This document shows, piece by piece, positions 1,386-62,169 of a stretch of DNA of 64,000 nt (position 1 is its first letter; every line of letters begins with the position of its first letter). Origin of the DNA: Octopus vulgaris (taxonomy: Eukaryota); contig OX597820.1 of assembly GCA_951406725.2 (NCBI GenBank), positions 106,268,001-106,332,000 on the forward strand. The letters run 5' to 3'. A program made the position numbers and the translations under genes. The notes below the pieces were generated by a model that ran no database searches, had not been told where the DNA came from, and was given only the letters and a program-made list of their open reading frames with translations.

Positions 1386-1632
1386 TGGTATTAAACTGTA
1401 GCTATGCTTTTTTTCAATAAAATGTTAAGTTAAAGTTTTGGTTAATGACTAACGAAGTTAACTTTTCAATTAACAGTGCCCACTTCTGTGTATGTGTATA
1501 TATATACACACATATATATATATACCAAAACTGTCAGATGAACAGGAACGTGAAACTCTGATGTTTTTGTGATGTCTTTGCAGGTTTATTAGTAAAGTTT
1601 ATACATACATACATACATATATATATATACAC

Positions 1633-11409: not shown

Positions 11410-14400
11410 CTAGCAGAGATACCCAGCGTTGCCCGGTTACATTCAATTGAAGAATTAGACTTTTCTGTTATATATATATGGATACACACACACACATATA
11501 TATATGTATATTAATATAAATACATGAAAGTACATGAAGTTTGTTAAAAAAAAAGGGGATCATGTATATTCCTCCTGGCTGTTGAGATTATAACACCTCG
11601 TTGTAAACAATGTTCCTTGTTTTTCCTTGTGGAGCATATACAAAAAGGTTTCTTTTGGTTCCTACTCTTGAGCAGCCAACATATAGTTGCCCATGCGAGA
11701 AGCAGGGCTCTTCCAAGAGAAGACCAGGTACAGAGAGGGTTTGACCCTGAGATTTGTTAATGGACATGGCAAAGCTGACGGGAAGAGGAAATTGCAATCT
11801 TCTGAATGTAAATGGAATTTCTGCTCCTGATGGAGTAAGAGGAATTCTTGGAATAAAGACGTCATCACCTTTTCCACATCCAGAAAGAATGATCGCCTCG
11901 ATAACGTGTGACATAATTTTCTTTATCACCAGTCGTGTTCCATTGCAAAGTCTTGGTGGTTCCAGATTGCAGAGTAGCATTACAGGAGTTCCAACTTTAA
12001 GTGGTAATATGTGTGGAGGTAGTCCAGGAGGCTCCCGTGAATTGAGAAATTCAGGAGGATAATTCACAACTTCATTTATATCTGGAATTGTATCAACAGA
12101 CTTGTAAGTGTGTATAGTGCCTGGAAGAGAATGCATTAGCTGTTGATTAATTTTGTTAATGCGACGTTTTTTGGAGGTAACATTGCTCTTTCACACAGCC
12201 AATTGTGATTTTGGTAGTTTTGAGTCAAGTTGAGAAAGACTTTGTTTTTGAGGTCATCTACAGAATTAACAACAGAGGAAAATGACCTCACTTCCATTTG
12301 TCCTGCAGCATCGAGAGGTATCTTGCCTTCACCAAGTGTCAAAATGTCCTGTGCAAACTTTGTGGACATTTTGTCGCCGTGTAGCTGAGCTCTCATGTTA
12401 GTGGTGAGACTGAGGATTGTAACATGATGCCACAGAGTAGAGGACTTTAGGCATGCTTGGACTTCATCTGCTCTAGGGCCTTTTGGAATGACAGGAAGAG
12501 TTTGCCTGAAATCACCTAACAACAGAAGCGTTACACCTCCCATTGGAGCCTGACAGTCTCGGATGTCTTTCAGGGCTCTATCTAATGCTTCCAAAGCTCA
12601 CTTGTGAGCCATAGTGCACTCATCCCAGACAATTAGATGACACATTTTAAGTACTTGTCTCTGATCTGAGCTTTTGTTGATGTTGCATGAAGGCATTTCG
12701 GATGCTGCTAAATTGAGAGGGAGTTTAAAAGTTGAGTGTGCTGTCCTGCCACCGGGTAACAAAGTAGCTGCAATGCCAGAGGAGGCTACAGCTACTGCAA
12801 TGTCCTGATGCTGCCTAACTTCTGCAAGGAGAAGCTTTGTAATAAATATTTTTCCTGCCCCTCCAGGAGCATCGAGGAAGAAGATTCGTTCCTCACGTTG
12901 GCGTACACTGTTAAGAATAGTTCTATAGGCCTGCAGCTGGTCCGGAAGTAATTTAGGCTCATTTTCAACAATGTTCTTTGAAAGCGCTTGAGTGTCGTAG
13001 GTTGTATCACGAATGACAGCAGTGGGAAGGCTATTTGACCCTGACCTGAATGCTTGTGGCAGGCCATACATCGACAATTCATTTCCACCCAATTTAGCTG
13101 TCTTCAATGTCAATGAGTGTTTTGTTATAGATTTCATTGCTGATACCCTCCATGTCAAGATAGAGCAGTTGAGCTTGGCGCTGAAAGTCTTCAGCCAGGT
13201 TGTCTCTATATTTGAGCCATAGAGTGGCCGGATCACACAGTTCGCATGCCTGTAGTAATACTGCAAATAGTGCCCTGAGACTTTTAGGTGATTGTGATAA
13301 AGCAGCCTCTCCTAAAGTTGCATCCCATTGTGCACCATCTTCTAACAGACCTTGTCGATAGCAGGCTTCTCTGTATGTTGTGCAGACATGTCCATGAACG
13401 GTTTTTAGGGCCTGGAAAGACGTTGGCCCTCTGACCTCATGCAGTAGTAGACGAAGGTAGAAGCACTCTTGTTGAGTAGGATGCATTGTGTATACTCGCC
13501 CAAGGCAAGTGTGAAACTTAATGCCAGGGTATCCATGAACATTTTGACCTGCTTTCTGTGGGGCCCATTTTTTTCCATTCCAAGTGTAGTATGATGGAAT
13601 CTGTGGATACAGCAAGGTTTGAGTGAATGGATCCACTTGACAAAGCTCGAAGAATGCAGTGAGTGTGCTATCCCTTGGTTCCTCTGCCAACAGAGAAGCA
13701 TTAGCATCGGTGAAGTACACTCTTTGACCATTTTCCATCTGTTACCATCATCCATTGTCCCGTAGTGAGAAGTAAGTTTTATTTCCCTGTGTTGGGAATG
13801 AAATGAGAATGAAATGTAAGGGGACAATGTTTTTGAGATTCTGGTTCGAATGTAAGGCAGGTTTGAAAGTGTTCCCAACAGTTATTAGTTGTAGTGGTAG
13901 AGTGTTTATGCCGAATATGTATGTATGCATGTATATATATGTATGTATGCCTGTATATATGTACAAAATCCACTGAGAAGGCTTTTGTTGGTCTGAGGCT
14001 ACAGCAGAAGACACATGCCAAGTCACCACACAGTGGGACTGAACTCAGGACCATGTGTTTGGAACGTAGTTTGTTACCACACAGCCACACCTGCCCCTAT
14101 GTATGTGTGTGTGTGTGTGTGTATGTGTGTATGGGTAGATATATTATGCATGTATATATGTGTATATATATGTGTACATATTACATGTACATCTATATAT
14201 ATACATCTACACATAAAATACAAAATACAAAGTTTTATATCTTGATATTGCTAGTGATAACAATACTCAAAATATATAACAGACTGGAATTGTAGGCCCG
14301 TCTCTTGCAATTTCGATCAATTGGATCTTGTCCTCCCTCTTGTATAGAAGTGTATGGCTGCAGCGAAATTCATTTTTGGACTTTCTTCTATCACAGGCAT

Positions 14401-23606: not shown

Positions 23607-24862
23607 ATAATGGAAACACCTTAAAATTTCAAACAAAAATTGTTTTAATATGGGGTAGGACTGCCTTTGGCAGTAATTACAGCTTGAAGTCTACGAGGTA
23701 TGGACTCATACAAAGTTTGAATTGTTTCCAAAGAAATTTTTGTCCAGTCTTCAGCTAAAACAATTTCTAGTTCTTGTAGTGATGATGATGGAGAATATTG
23801 ACTCCTTACTTGATTTTCTAAAATACTCCATAAATGTTCAATAATATTGAGATCTGGAGACAGTGGTGGCCAGATAAGAGGTTCAACTTCACTAGAATGT
23901 TCCTTGTGCCATTCAGTAACAACTTTAGCTGTGTGAATTGGTGCATTATCATCCTGAAAGATTGCATTTCCCCCCGGAAATAGTTCTGCAACCATAGGAT
24001 GAATTTGATCAGATAAAATGCTTAAATAGTCTTCACTATTAATTCTGCCATGAAGGGAAACCATTGGGCTGGCAGATTTCCAAGATACAGCACCCACTTC
24101 CCAGATCATCACAGATCCTCCTCTATGTTTAACAGCTGGAAAAAGGCAGTCTGAATCAAATGCTTCTTTTGGCTGTCTCCACATGTATACTCGGCTGGTG
24201 GTCAGAAATAAGATAAAGGATGACTCGTCCCAGAAAATAACATTCTTCCACTGCTCTAGGGACCAATTCTGTAGGTTTTCACTCCACTCTAATTACTTTG
24301 CAACGTTTGTTTTTAAAAGTAGTGGTTTTCTGATTGCAGCCCTCCCATGAAATCCAGCTCTGTGCAGCTCCCAGCAAACAGTTTTTATGGAAACTGGGTT
24401 CTCAAGATCATTAAGCTCTGCAGTAATTTTGGGAGCTGTACTTTTGTGATCTTTTCTAACAATTTGCATAAGAGTCCAACTGAAAGTTTTGGTTTTCTTC
24501 CAAAGTTTTGTTTTCACGCAGAGGTTTTTCCCTCTTTCTCAAAGGTTGTCATTACTTTTGAGACAGTACTTCTTGATACATCAAACATTTCAGCTGTTTT
24601 CGTTACACTAGCACCTGCCATACAAGCACCAACAATTTGACCTCTTTAAAAGTCCAATAGATCTGTCATTTTAATGAATTTTAATTACCTTTTTCTAATG
24701 ATATCTGAAAAGAAACAGCAATTTTAGCAAAACATACTAAGCAACACTAATTCAACACTAATTCAAAAATATAAAAATAAACAAACTTTTGACGATTTTA
24801 TAGATATTTCAAAATTATGATGCTATGATGCTAGGTGTTTCCATTATTTTGTCCAACCCCTG
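23607..24862 (-). mobile_element. Tc1-family DNA transposon (DD36E spacing), defective
   Basis: Transposase fragments (HTH region; DESSF; KHRGGSVMIW; FQDDNAPIH-36 aa-SPDLNIIE); right TIR ggtgtttccattattttgtccaacccctg followed by TA; left TIR reduced to ataatggaaacacc next to (TA)n. Confidence 0.9.
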
Positions 24863-36314: not shown

Positions 36315-36824
36315 TACATATATATATACACACACACATATATACATATACATACATACACACACAGATATACATACATACATACATACACACAAACACA
36401 CACACACATACATCATATATATATATATATATATATATATCTCATCATCATCATCATCATCATCATCGTTTAACGGCCTTTTTCCATGCTAGCATGGGTT
36501 GGACTGTTCGACCGGGGTCTGGGAAGCCAGGAGGCTGCAACAGGCAGTGATCAGGCAGTGTTTCTACAGTTGGATGTCCTTTCTAGCACCAACCACTCCG
36601 TGAGTGTAGTTGGTGTTTTTTATGTGCCACCAGCACAGGTGCCAGGGGAGGCTGGCAACAGCCACGATTGGTTGGTGGTTTTTACGTGCCACAGACACGG
36701 AAGCCAGTCAAGGTGGTGCTGGCATTGGCCACGTACACAAATGCCAGGGCAGGCTGGCAATATCCACGAGAGATGTACTTGCATAGCAAATGACCTAATC
36801 TGAGATCGTGTGCTGGAACGAAAA

Positions 36825-37208
36825 CAATTGCAGCGTAGAAGGTGTTTATAAGCCATTTAAGAAACACACAAAAACTGTTAGATTCACTTCAACATTTAAA
36901 TTTATGGCAACTTCACAACTGTTGGTGCCATGGGAAATGTACCCAATATATTCTGTAAAGTGGTTGGCATTAGGAAGGGCATCCAGCTATAGACGCCATG
37001 CCACAGCAGACATTGGAGTGTGATGTCGTACTTGGACCCAATGTACTCTCACCTACAACATGCAGCACGGAATTTTGTCAGTGAACAGGTTGCGGTTTCA
37101 AAGCGATGAAAATATTTTGACACAAATTAAATTTAAATGTTGAAGTGAATCTAATGGTTTTTGTGTGTTTCTCAAATGGCTTATAAACACCTTCTATGCT
37201 GCAAATGT
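36825..37208. mobile_element. Inverted pair of ~80-bp element ends enclosing an RTE-tail fragment and an HHR-like motif
   Basis: 36825-36903 is the reverse complement of 37129-37208 with few mismatches. Confidence 0.7.
37076..37122 (+). ncRNA. Hammerhead-like motif with swapped G3-C8 core
   Basis: tgtca-GTGAACA-g-gttgc ggtttcaaa gcgat-GAA-aatatt-t-tgaca; perfect 5-bp stem I, palindromic stem III; atypical UUU triplet. Confidence 0.55.
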
Positions 37209-39826: not shown

Positions 39827-40609
39827 CATTATTGTTTTAACATCTACTTTTCCATACTTGCATGGGTTAGGTGAGAGTACATTAGGTCCAAAGACGACAT
39901 CACACTCCAATGTCTGCTGTGGCATGGCGTCTATAGCTGGATGCCCTTCCTAATGCCAACCACTTTACAGAGTATATTGGGTGCATTTCCCATGGCACCA
40001 ACAGTCGTGAGGTTGCCATGAGGGTAATTTAGTCTAAATTACCCACAGACTAAGACTACAACAAGACTAAATTACCTTCAGACTAAGACTACAATTGAAA
40101 GGGTGGCAGCTTTATGCTAGATGATGAAAAGTTAGAGTATGAAAGAAGGCCCCAGAACAGGTTTCATGGCTGCTCAGGTTATATATAACAACATACACAC
40201 ATACACTCATTTTAAGCAGGAATAATACTAGAAGGAAATGGTTACTATTGAAGGTAATGTACCACTATAGCCAAAGCATCAATGGTTTAAAGAAATTAAA
40301 GACTAAGAAGTCACTGAAACACATTTTCATATCTGCCACCAAAACATCCCAATGCTTTCATTTAGCTAGGATCCATTTAACTTTTCTTCACCAAATGGTT
40401 TTACATGCAAAACTATTGAGGGCATTCAACATGGTAACTGTGTGATCTCTAAAAGCCAGCATTTAGAAACTGAAAGTTTCAAAGGTGACAAAAGAACCCA
40501 TAGGGAACTCAGCTATCTTAAATGTAACTAGTTCAACTAGTAGTAGTAACAGCAACAGAAGTAGTCATGGCAGCAGTGGCAGCAGCAGTAGTAGTAGCAG
40601 TATTATCAT

Positions 40610-45653: not shown

Positions 45654-48600
45654 ATCATCATCATCATCATCATCATCATCGTTTAACGTCCGTTCTCCAT
45701 GCTAGCATGGGTTGGACAGTTCGACCGGGGGATCTGGGAAGCCAGAAGGCTGCACCAGGCTCCAGTCTTATCTGGCAATGTTTCTACAGCTGGATGCCCT
45801 TCCTAACGCCAACCACTCCGTGAGTGTAGTGGGTGCTTTTTACGTGCCACCTGCACAGGTGCCAGGCAAGGCTGGCAACGGCCACGGTCGGATTGGTGTA
45901 TTTTATGTGCCACCGGCACGGAAGCCAGTCGGGGCGGTGCTGGCATCGGCCACGATTCGGATAGTGCTTTTTACGTACCACCAGACCAGGGATCCTGGCT
46001 GGTTCAATTCGATTTCGCTTTCGCTTGCCCCAACATGTCTTCGCAAGCAAAGGGGGTTGGCATGGGTGCCTGTCGTCGGATGGGGTTCTATATCGACTTC
46101 GCTTGCCTCAACAGGTCTTTGTGTCCAAGGGAGGAAAGGCATTCATAAGTGGGCTGGGCTCACTTGTCCTGCCTGGTCTTCTCACGTACAGCATATTTCC
46201 AAACGTCTCGGTCGCTGGTCATTTCCTCAGTGAGGCCTAAAGTTCGAAGGTCGTGCTTCACCACCTCGTCCCAGGTTTTCCTGGGTCTACCTCTTCCACG
46301 GGTTCCCTCAACTGCTAGGGATTGACACTTTCTCACACACCTATCTTCATCCATTCTCGCCACATGACCATACCAGCGCAATCGTCTCTCTTGCACACCA
46401 CAACTGATGCTTCTTAGGTACAACATTTCTCTCAAGGTACTAACGCTCTGTCGAGTATGTACACTGACATTACACATCTATCGGAGCATACTGGCTTCAT
46501 TCCTCACGAGCTTACGCATGTCCTCAGCAGTCACAGCCCATGTTTCACTGCCATGTAGCATGGCTGTTCGTTCACATGCATCATACAGTCTGCCTTTTAC
46601 TCTGAGCGAGAGGCCTTTAGTCACCAGCAGAGGTAAGAGCTCCCTAAACTTTGCCCAGGCTATTCTTATTCTAGCAGTTACACTTTCAGCGCACCCACCC
46701 CCGCTACTGACTTGGTCACCTAGATAACGAAAGCTATCAACTACTTCTAGTTTTTCCCCCTGGAAGGAGACGGAAGTTGTTTTCTGCAGATTTTCGGAGG
46801 TTAATGCTCCCGAGCATCTGCCACATACAAAAACTATCTTCCCAGTTAGCCTACCTTTGACATTGCTGCACCTCTTATGTGTCCATAGCTTACACTGGGT
46901 ACATCTTATAGAGTTTCTACCTACACCTTTTCTACAGATCGAGCAGGGCCATCTACCTGAAGACATTTGTGGATTGTCTACCTTCCTACTTATTAGTACT
47001 TTGGTTTTAGCTAGGTTGACTCTAAGGCCCCTCGATTCTAAACCCTCCTTCCACACCTGGAACTTCTCCTCCAGTTCTGATAGTGACTCAGCAATTAGAG
47101 CAAGGTCGTCAGCATAGAGGAGCTCCCAGGGACAACCTGTCTTGAATTCCTCCGTAATTGCCTGGAGGACTATAATAAATAGGAGGGGGCTGAGTACTGG
47201 ACCCCGGTGGACCCCAACCTCTACTTTGAATTCTTCTGTGTACATGTTGCCAACCCTAACCTTACTTACGGCATCTCTGTACATGGCTTGCACAGTCCTC
47301 ACCAGCCATTCATCTATCCCTAGTTTCCTCATTGACCACCAGATAAGGGATCGAGGGACCCTATCAAAAGCTTTCTCCATGTCAACGAAAGCCAGGTACA
47401 GGGGCTTATCTTTGGCTAGGTATTTCTCCTGCAGCTGCCTTACCAGGAATATAGCATCAGTAGTACTTTTCCCTGGCACGAACCCAAACTGCATCTCATC
47501 TAAACTAACTCTCTCTCTAATTAGTTGGGCAATGACCCTCTCCGTAACCTTCATTACCTGATCCAACAGCTTGATACCTCTGTAATTATTTGTATCTAGG
47601 GCATCACCTTTACCTTTGTAGTAGTTGACTAGTATGCTGCTACACCAGTCATTGGGTATGACTCCTTCGTGTATCACCTGGTTGACTATACGGGTGACTA
47701 GGCTATAGCCGACATTGCCAGATATTTTGAGCATCTCTGCAGTAATTCCTGATGGGCCTGGGGCTTTCCCTGTCTTCATGCTTCTAATTGCCTTAGCTAC
47801 CACGGAACTATCAACTCGGATAGCTGGTCCCTCTGTTGGGTCAACATTCGGCAGACTCTCTTTATCCCATTCATTTTCTTTATTCAGCAACCTTTCATAG
47901 TGGCGTCTCCAAACCTCTCTCTTTGCATCCTCATCTAGAGCAAGTGAACCATCATCCATGCGAACACACTTCTCTCCTACCACATCATGATTCTCTCTCA
48001 CACACTGTCTTGCAACACGAAATACCTCAAGTCTTTCATCCTCACGGCTCAGAACATTGGCAAATTTTTTCTTATCCGCTTCCCCTCTGGCTAAATAAAC
48101 CTGTCTCCTAGCTTCCCTTCTGGCTGTCTGATACAATTCCCTGCTACCACCGTTCTTCCAGTCCTTCTAAGCCTGTCTCTTTTGTCTAATAGCCCTGTCA
48201 ACCACAGTGTTCCACCACCATGTTACTCTGGGTCGAGATGGTACTTTGCTCCATCCACAGATCTGGTCAGTGGCTGTCAGCAGATTGTCCCGTAGAAATC
48301 TCCAGTTGCCTTCCACATTAAGTGAAGCTATATCCCCTTCTATTTCGTCAGAGGCTTCGAGTAGTATGTCTCTAAATCTCTGTCCATTTGCAGGATCTTT
48401 AAGCTTCCAGACCCTTCTCCTCCAAGCAGGTCTTCTTCTGGGCAACCATTTAGCTCTGATCCTGAAGTCGCTAACTACTAATCTATGTTGAGGAGTACAT
48501 TCTTCGCCTGGAAAGGTTTTGGCATTTATAAGCAGCCCTCTTTCCCTTTTTCTGGCAAGGATGTAGTCAATCTGGCTAGTGTGTCTGCCAGAACGGTAGG

Positions 48601-49182
48601 TGACTAGGTGAGAGGTGGGTTTCCTGAAGTTGGTATTGCAGACCATAAGGTCATTTGCATCGCAGAACTCCAGCAGCCTGGTTCCCTCCTCATTACGAGA
48701 GCCAAAACCATAGCCTCCATGGACGCCATGGAAGCCCTCGACATGCCGTCCAACATGTCCATTGAAATCACCTGCCACGAAGAGAAGGTCACTGTCATTT
48801 GTCAACGAGGTAGTCCGCAATAGGGTGTCATAGAATTGGTCTTTTTGTCCTTCCGGTAGCCCTGGTTGAGGGGCATATGCCGAGATGATGGTAGCTGACC
48901 TATGGTGAAGCACTAATCTAATCTTAAGTACTCTATCACTTACTCTGACTACCTTGATTACCTTATCTACCCATTTCTCCGCAAGAAGTATACCCACGCC
49001 CCCGACCCCGTCAGTGTTCCCTGCCCAGAAAATCTTGTACCTGTGTTCCTTGCCTGTGAGGAGCCTAGCGGAGCCTAGCGGAGCCTAGCGGAGCCTCCTC
49101 TCCACCTTACTTCCTGGATGCAGCATAAATCCACACGTCTCCGTTCAAGCAGCTCAACAATCTCTCCACACCTACCTTTCAA
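45654..49182 (-). mobile_element. Near full-length RTE/BovB-like LINE (APE endonuclease + RT)
   Basis: One reading frame from ~49060 to 46160 with two in-frame TAG codons; APE motifs (CCIQEVRW, SAYAPQ, GDFNGHVG, QIDYIL, QHRLVV); RT motifs (FVDMEKAFDRV, LYADDL, FRYLG); 3' UTR and (atg)n tail; 5' end truncated; 10-bp unit triplicated near 49061-49095. Confidence 0.96.
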
Positions 49183-62134: not shown

Positions 62135-62169
62135 GTTTAAAGTTTCAAGCGGAGCTCTTCGTCAGAAAC
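62135..62169 (-). ncRNA. Minimal hammerhead motif in TA-flanked element ~62035-62260 (family of 21795-22005)
   Basis: gttt-CTGACGA-a-gagc tcc gctt-GAA-actt-t-aaac; shares the cgctcaggaa flank with the 21.9-kb copy. Confidence 0.62.

Follow-up and report, generated by a model that had tools for sequence, protein, structure and literature searches.

Minimal hammerheads of Penelope-like elements and the motif at 37076..37122

The closest described systems are the minimal hammerhead ribozymes of metazoan Penelope-like elements (PLEs), for which Cervera & de la Pena (2014, PMC4209133) describe a type I architecture with a short stem I, a location in the pseudo-LTRs (pLTRs), a base inserted between positions 9 and 10.1, a G10.1-C11.1 pair, a palindromic helix III and, commonly, U17; they are reported to cleave weakly and as dimers (PMC4209133, PMC6765202). 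In the hammerhead core, positions 3 and 8 form a tertiary Watson-Crick pair, at which G8C costs about 10^5-fold in activity and C3G partly restores it (PMC8495972), and the C3G/G8C swap is the classic laboratory test for this pair. Likewise, cleavage of a protein-dependent PLE hammerhead is abolished by C3G or G8C alone and partly restored by C3G/G8C, while for the element PAc (Poseidon, Anolis) the same source describes unprocessed RNA as the insertion substrate and hammerhead mutants that insert normally in vitro (PMC11167929). Natural U3-A8 hammerheads have been published (Perreault et al. 2011, PMC3088659; Schistosoma in PMC4209133), reached by two transitions that keep a pyrimidine at 3 and a purine at 8. 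A natural G3-C8 hammerhead was not found in the literature searched, where such cores were engineered only; Lunse et al. 2017, or papers and supplements on 3-8 mutagenesis, could list one.

In the 64,000-nt stretch of Octopus vulgaris DNA analysed here (the window), a motif of this kind with the core GUGAACA was located, consisting of the following parts:

37076..37122 (+): minimal type I hammerhead motif, G3-C8 variant, from sequence, folding and family alignment
37076-37080 and 37118-37122 (+): stem I, TGTCA with TGACA, read from the sequence
37081..37087 (+): 5′ strand of the core, GUGAACA, with G3 at 37081, U4, G5, A6, A7, C8 at 37086 and A9
37088..37088 (+): unpaired G between A9 and G10.1, from sequence and folding
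37089..37107 (+): stem-loop II, 5 bp with a 9-nt loop, arms 37089-37093 and 37103-37107
37108..37117 (+): G12-A13-A14-A15.1 (GAAA, 37108-37111), palindrome AAUAUU (AATATT, 37111-37116; predicted helix III of a dimer), U16.1 (37116) and U17 (37117)
37117/37118 boundary (+): predicted cut site, from the hammerhead reading of the sequence

The GUGAACA core, the perfect stem I, stem II, GAAA and the palindromic AAUAUU, on which the original prediction was built, were all found in place. As in the metazoan PLE minimal hammerheads of PMC4209133, helices I and II surround the core, the chain closes in a short stem I (type I), the motif lies in a pLTR, a base is inserted after A9, helix III is palindromic, position 17 is U and, in the family to which the copy belongs, the 10.1-11.1 pair is the canonical G-C. 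The window copy itself is one slightly decayed member with respect to the family consensus, having G-U at 10.1-11.1 and a stem II of GUUGC/GCGAU, two CpG-type changes away from the family GUCGC/GCGAC. The inserted base is G, for which the published consensus gives H and one motif has G, and the 3-8 pair is G-C, unlike the motifs compared in Fig. S3 of PMC4209133, which have C-G, U-A or, in one case, U-G. The locus shares natural 3-8 covariation with the U3-A8 variants of PMC3088659; in contrast to them, G-C requires two transversions and reverses the orientation of the pair. The UUU triplet had been called atypical, a description that does not fit: U17 is frequent among PLE minimal hammerheads, Fig. 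S3 includes a Crassostrea gigas PLE motif with UUU (PMC4209133), and the related octopus families B, C and D (see below) also carry U17. By its anatomy the motif is a PLE minimal hammerhead, which would be expected to work like one and which fails the literal CUGANGA consensus only. A natural G3-C8 pair was anticipated by known chemistry and would be a confirmation and extension rather than a surprise.

RNA folding of the window copy gives stems I and II, with a stability that, for this copy alone, is no better than that of shuffled sequences (z -0.56). Moreover, Rfam returned no hammerhead match in the window (among the best 150 of 223 matches) or in a young copy, the top matches being miRNA models on microsatellites. 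The expectation that standard CUGANGA searches would miss the motif was borne out, as this pattern cannot match GUGAACA; canonical minimal PLE motifs may escape the Rfam models too. The unremarkable fold and the missing Rfam match are also what a chance look-alike in AT-rich repeat DNA would give, a reading that is scarcely credible against thousands of copies, a fixed place in the pLTR of a PLE and the canonical cores that paralogs carry at this position. It is because of the thousands of family copies, and not of the single-copy fold, that the motif is regarded as non-random.

Fixation and covariation of the 3-8 pair

In the 2.8-Gb genome, a 20-nt pattern over the 5′ half of the motif, comprising stem I, core and stem II, had 6,187 perfect matches, compared with 0 for the reversed control. 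When positions 3, 7 and 8 were left free, 6,891 matches were obtained, so that G3, A7 and C8 occurred jointly in 89.8% (6,187/6,891). In a sample of 64 copies picked by their downstream tail, independently of the ribozyme sequence, 55 had G3-C8, five G3/G8, three A3/C8 and one U3/C8, the UUU triplet was present in 62, and U4, G5, A6 and A9, G12, A13 and A14, A15.1-U16.1 and H17 were each conserved in 91-100%. Furthermore, a pLTR was present in 15 of 20 stretches beside long reverse transcriptase (RT) copies, and all 15 were G3-C8. G3 and C8 are thus fixed across the family, with the stems kept. The family departs from the canonical core at 2 of 13 positions only, namely the two that pair (3 and 8). 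In contigs from 8 runs under four organism labels, from which ends, strand and level are not readable, no variant above 3-5% was seen at positions 3 or 8.

In 77 G3-C8 copies, with CpG sites set aside, loop II was polymorphic at 5 of its 9 columns, the core and stems at 0 of 38 and the downstream sequence at 9 of 136. The contrast of core and stems is strong with loop II and weak with the downstream sequence, and since the latter is also poor in polymorphic columns, the 0/38 argues weakly for selection following the flip. CpG sites apart, loop II is the sole part of the motif that varies between the G3-C8 subfamilies; in the wider set of copies, a lineage with A>G in stem I (a U-G wobble) is also present.

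Departures from the pair were unevenly distributed, with 379 non-C8 copies vs. 187 non-G3 copies. By hand counts, G8 appeared in 38 of the first 100 non-C8 copies and C3 in 8 of the first 100 non-G3 copies; extrapolated from these subsets, about 144 C8-to-G vs. 15 G3-to-C copies would exist, an excess of ~9-10x. The C8-to-G copies were scattered over the subfamilies, and their excess may stem from a hotspot of mutation or from numerous source copies with G3/G8. An ancestral intermediate subfamily with G3/G8 found no support, as nine such copies among 99 showed no clustering. No C3-G8 member of the family was found among the first 100 of the 379 non-C8 or of the 187 non-G3 copies listed, and C3-G8 pattern matches considered as members (20 of 59 viewed) belong to other families or to chance.

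Paralogous families in the same genome carry the motif at the same place upstream of an ATG. Family B (L185, L186) is young, with 1,312-aa ORFs whose RT is 62% identical to that of the G3-C8 family, and has C3-G8, a core CUGAUGC with A9C, and stem II GUCAC/GUGAC; the presence of A9C in a young family indicates that cores in this clade tolerate change. Family C (L238-L252, L344, L347) has U3-A8 in 5,457 pattern matches (control, 1), and the older family D has C3-G8 in a core CUGAAGA with the same stem I as the G3-C8 family (GUCA/UGAC). All three share the inserted G and U17. As separate observations, the family B ORF contains a long Asn-rich insert of low complexity, and near GIY-YIG matches (L113-L130, L142) there are at least two additional types of U3-A8 motif.

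A scan of 44 metagenome loci with related RTs (best 44 of 80), in which positions 3 and 8 were left free, gave seven sense-strand matches, all of them Watson-Crick (4 C-G, 2 U-A and 1 A-U), and one antisense match, which was non-paired; shuffles gave ~1.1 matches per strand. At L268:1512-1545, a single candidate A3-U8 hammerhead with short stems, in one copy, lies upstream of a related RT. In an alignment of 11 hand-chosen motifs, 87% of the cells were paired, a value reached in 0 of 500 shuffles of a control that ignores relatedness, and the 3-8 columns held six C-G, three U-A and one G-C, the remaining motif (L268) being judged misaligned there. Thus, with C-G, U-A and G-C at the same position in related elements, the 3-8 pair covaries, and the proposal that the double change is compensatory is upheld by the paralogs, the metagenome loci and the 11-motif alignment. 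In an RT/EN tree of 26 sequences, anchored on family B and built without family D, in which the short L296 was placed unreliably, G3 was confined to the G3-C8 family (family A, support 100), with C-G and U-A in the sisters and in outside branches; most simply, G-C at 3-8 would be a derived state.

With C-G, U-A and G-C versions side by side in a single genome, the paralogous families lend themselves readily to comparison. Moreover, search descriptors should free positions 3 and 8 as a pair, given that >6,000 G3-C8 and >5,400 U3-A8 matches in this genome escape CUGANGA; if these motifs are true hammerheads, surveys based on that consensus miss many thousands of animal hammerheads.

The host element and its insertion footprint

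The surroundings of the motif in the window are made up of the following parts:

37060..37204 (+): direct copy of a PLE pLTR, which begins ~2 nt inside the putative transcription start and extends to about the shorter of the two 3′ ends
37176..37204 (+): start of the PLE ORF (ATG at 37176) inside the pLTR, truncated in the window copy
36769..36904 (-): inverted, 5′-truncated pLTR copy with a ~60-nt tail, without ribozyme
36904..37064 (+): filler separating the inverted copy from the direct one, with 94% identity to the minus strand of window 39859-40019

This layout of inverted copy with tail, filler and direct copy matches that of the family, whose copies are ~145-210-bp units at sites that are AT-rich or (TA)n. 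They end at either of two 3′ positions, ~60 nt from each other, and are often preceded by an inverted 5′-truncated copy. The source of the filler, 2.8 kb away on the opposite strand, looks as if it had been copied from nearby DNA during insertion, or else duplicated later.

The PLE ORF was found neither in the flanks of short copies nor in 150 tail matches, and was traced via two proteins in the databases that bear the labels Octopus sinensis and O. bimaculoides, and then via long copies. At one locus (L181), two direct G3-C8 motifs 4,261 bp apart flank an RT/GIY-YIG ORF, which starts ~95 nt downstream of the motif. A 1,025-aa ORF matched Pfam GIY-YIG over the cut-off (E 1.8e-5, residues 915-1005); the RT was assigned from a YVDD motif and from homologs named 'reverse transcriptase domain', Pfam RVT_1 giving no match. 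About 29 RT copies are 92-100% identical, which points to recent mobility of the family, and none of the family A ORFs in the copies examined was fully intact. From the pLTRs, the tail, the inverted copy and an RT with C-terminal GIY-YIG, the host is an EN+ Penelope-like element with a single ORF and direct pLTRs.

Among such elements, the host resembles the Nematis-type EN+ PLEs (Craig et al. 2021, PMC8557442) in its C-terminal GIY-YIG, pLTRs, tail, inverted 5′ copy and (TA)n targets, and in a short, Zn-finger-like CxxxCxxC-type linker before GIY-YIG, whose spacing matches, by eye, the Nematis sequences in Fig. S2 of that work; an assignment to that clade would be tentative, as the RT tree contains no Nematis reference. 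It is unlike the canonical PLEs of Fig. S1 there in a much longer RT 3-4 region and a different motif 4. The Naiad clade was rejected as an assignment, since it needs an N-terminal endonuclease and GIY-YIG is C-terminal here (915-1005 of 1,025). By eye, the ORF of L179 has a long insertion between RT motifs 3 and 4, where Naiad/Chlamys and telomerases have the IFD. In a database gene model (P0001), a PLE N-terminus is fused to a methyltransferase-like piece, which is probably a mis-annotation or an exonised TE.

The element is also comparable to PAc, which likewise has a pLTR hammerhead and short insertions whose ends fall at two internal points with a 'tail' between them, uses uncut RNA as insertion template and keeps partial activity with an engineered C3G/G8C core (PMC11167929). 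In contrast to PAc, the element belongs to a different PLE lineage, its G3-C8 is natural, and the predicted cut site is upstream of the ATG rather than 26 nt downstream of it.

The 5′ ends of the insertions were analysed in 88 tail-selected copies. In 13 of these the start falls exactly at AGATGCAGC, which lies 60 nt upstream of the predicted cut; in 28 it falls within a few bases of AGATGCAGC. A leading G was present in 12 of the 13 where the genomic template is C or T (binomial p about 2e-5), which suggests a reverse-transcribed cap and hence a transcription start at AGATGCAGC; for some leading-G copies, which sit at inverted junctions, microhomology could account for the G. A splice junction as the source of this boundary was rejected, and a capped start is preferred, because the copies have no common upstream exon beyond the one G. 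At L181:5455-5482, a branch-point/polypyrimidine/AG-like signal lies right at the putative start and could serve as a splice acceptor in read-through RNA.

Core-promoter elements sit just downstream of transcription starts, as does the motif with respect to this putative start, and TTTGTCAG, whose last base is G3, looks like a splice acceptor. G3 and C8 might accordingly have been fixed separately, as parts of promoter or splice signals, and be complementary by coincidence. This is very improbable, as the two pairing positions alone depart from the canonical core, the spacing of G3 from the start varies by 1 nt from one subfamily to another, and an intron end ~24 nt after a cap is unlikely.

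Not one of the 88 copies has its start within 2 nt of the cut site. Four start within 5 nt of it and 73 start upstream, the 95% upper bound for cut templates being about 3%. The inserted RNAs were therefore uncut, and cleavage left no genomic footprint.

Predicted cleavage and neighbouring sequences

The reading that we consider probable is that of a minimal type I hammerhead fold in the pLTR of a recently active PLE, with the 3-8 pair flipped to G-C, which likely cleaves itself after U17, slowly and with the need of a dimer or of the protein of the element. On the element mRNA, the motif would occupy roughly nt 19-65 as counted from the capped 5′ end, and two motifs, such as the 5′ and 3′ pLTR copies of a read-through RNA, could pair their AAUAUU palindromes to form helix III. 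Cutting after U17 would then remove the capped ~60-nt 5′ end or split multimers and read-through RNA, with the uncut RNAs presumably being those inserted. As the inserted RNAs are uncut, the role of the ribozyme would be the processing or dampening of the element RNA, not the production of the insertion template.

Two handicaps of this mechanism appeared in ViennaRNA folding, where helix I is lengthened by a G3-U17 pair (P=0.67) and two monomers are favoured over the active-type dimer by 2-3 kcal/mol. With C17 in place of U17, the pairing of G3 would reach 0.98, which fits the remark, with data not shown there, that the activity of a G3-C8 variant is higher when position 17 is G than when it is C (PMC3884650). 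Because C17 would trap G3, the U17 common to the sister families may have permitted the flip to G3-C8. The G3-C8 motif likely still cuts itself, weakly.

The same G3-U17 trap would be expected if the motif were vestigial, that is, if the fold were kept as a 5′ UTR structure for protein binding or the control of RT or translation, or were drifting, and the G3-C8 form no longer cleaved in vivo. The lack of copies starting at the cut site, the excess of G3/G8 copies, the A9C of the actively amplifying family B and the behaviour of PAc, whose insertion in vitro does not need the hammerhead and for which no RNA ends were seen at the hammerhead site (PMC11167929), are consistent with such a loss of catalysis. 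We hold it unlikely, since the 3-8 pair forms in tertiary-stabilised hammerheads and was not seen in minimal-hammerhead crystals (PMC3884650), and since positions 3 and 8 stay Watson-Crick through C-G, U-A and G-C with the other core bases nearly constant across elements ~62% identical in RT.

Going further than weak self-cleavage, it is plausible, and is proposed here tentatively, that this is the first natural active G3-C8 hammerhead, in a lineage that has sampled C-G, U-A, G-C and A-U (the latter from the single L268 candidate) at 3-8 on a permissive U17 background. If so, evolution has crossed a two-transversion valley with the pair kept, in a high-copy and recently mobile element, which would argue that catalysis is selected in PLEs despite being dispensable for insertion in vitro. 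The families would also be a natural series for the tuning of ribozyme rate at the 5′ end of a retrotransposon mRNA.

Other hammerhead-like sites are present in the window. The looser look-alike at 1532-1563, put forward as a second G3-C8 example, turned out to be a C3-G8 hammerhead read out of register: in register, C3 is found in 14 and G8 in 14 of 15 aligned copies (window copy included), and its assignment as G3-C8 was rejected. It belongs to a high-copy repeat family (window 1527-1590; L082-L095; at least 51 matches listed) with a bulged stem I, (TA)n sites and inverted copies, whose core is mostly CCGACGA (U4C) and reads CAGATGA in the decayed window copy. Loose matches to a minimal hammerhead were also found at 62168 (-, C-G), 26529 (+, C-G), 2787 (-, U-A) and 37981 (-, A-U). 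The first resembles a repeat also present in L122 and L137, and the other three may be chance matches.

Finally, ORF remnants in the window at ~46500-49100 (-), 11600-13750 (-) and 23650-24300 (-) resemble what we take to be an RTE-type LINE, a Helitron helicase and a Tc1-like transposase, respectively. Beside another pLTR copy, and directly adjoining it, an intron-less ORF that is presumably dCMP-deaminase-like (L048:1573-2120) is possibly a retrocopy.
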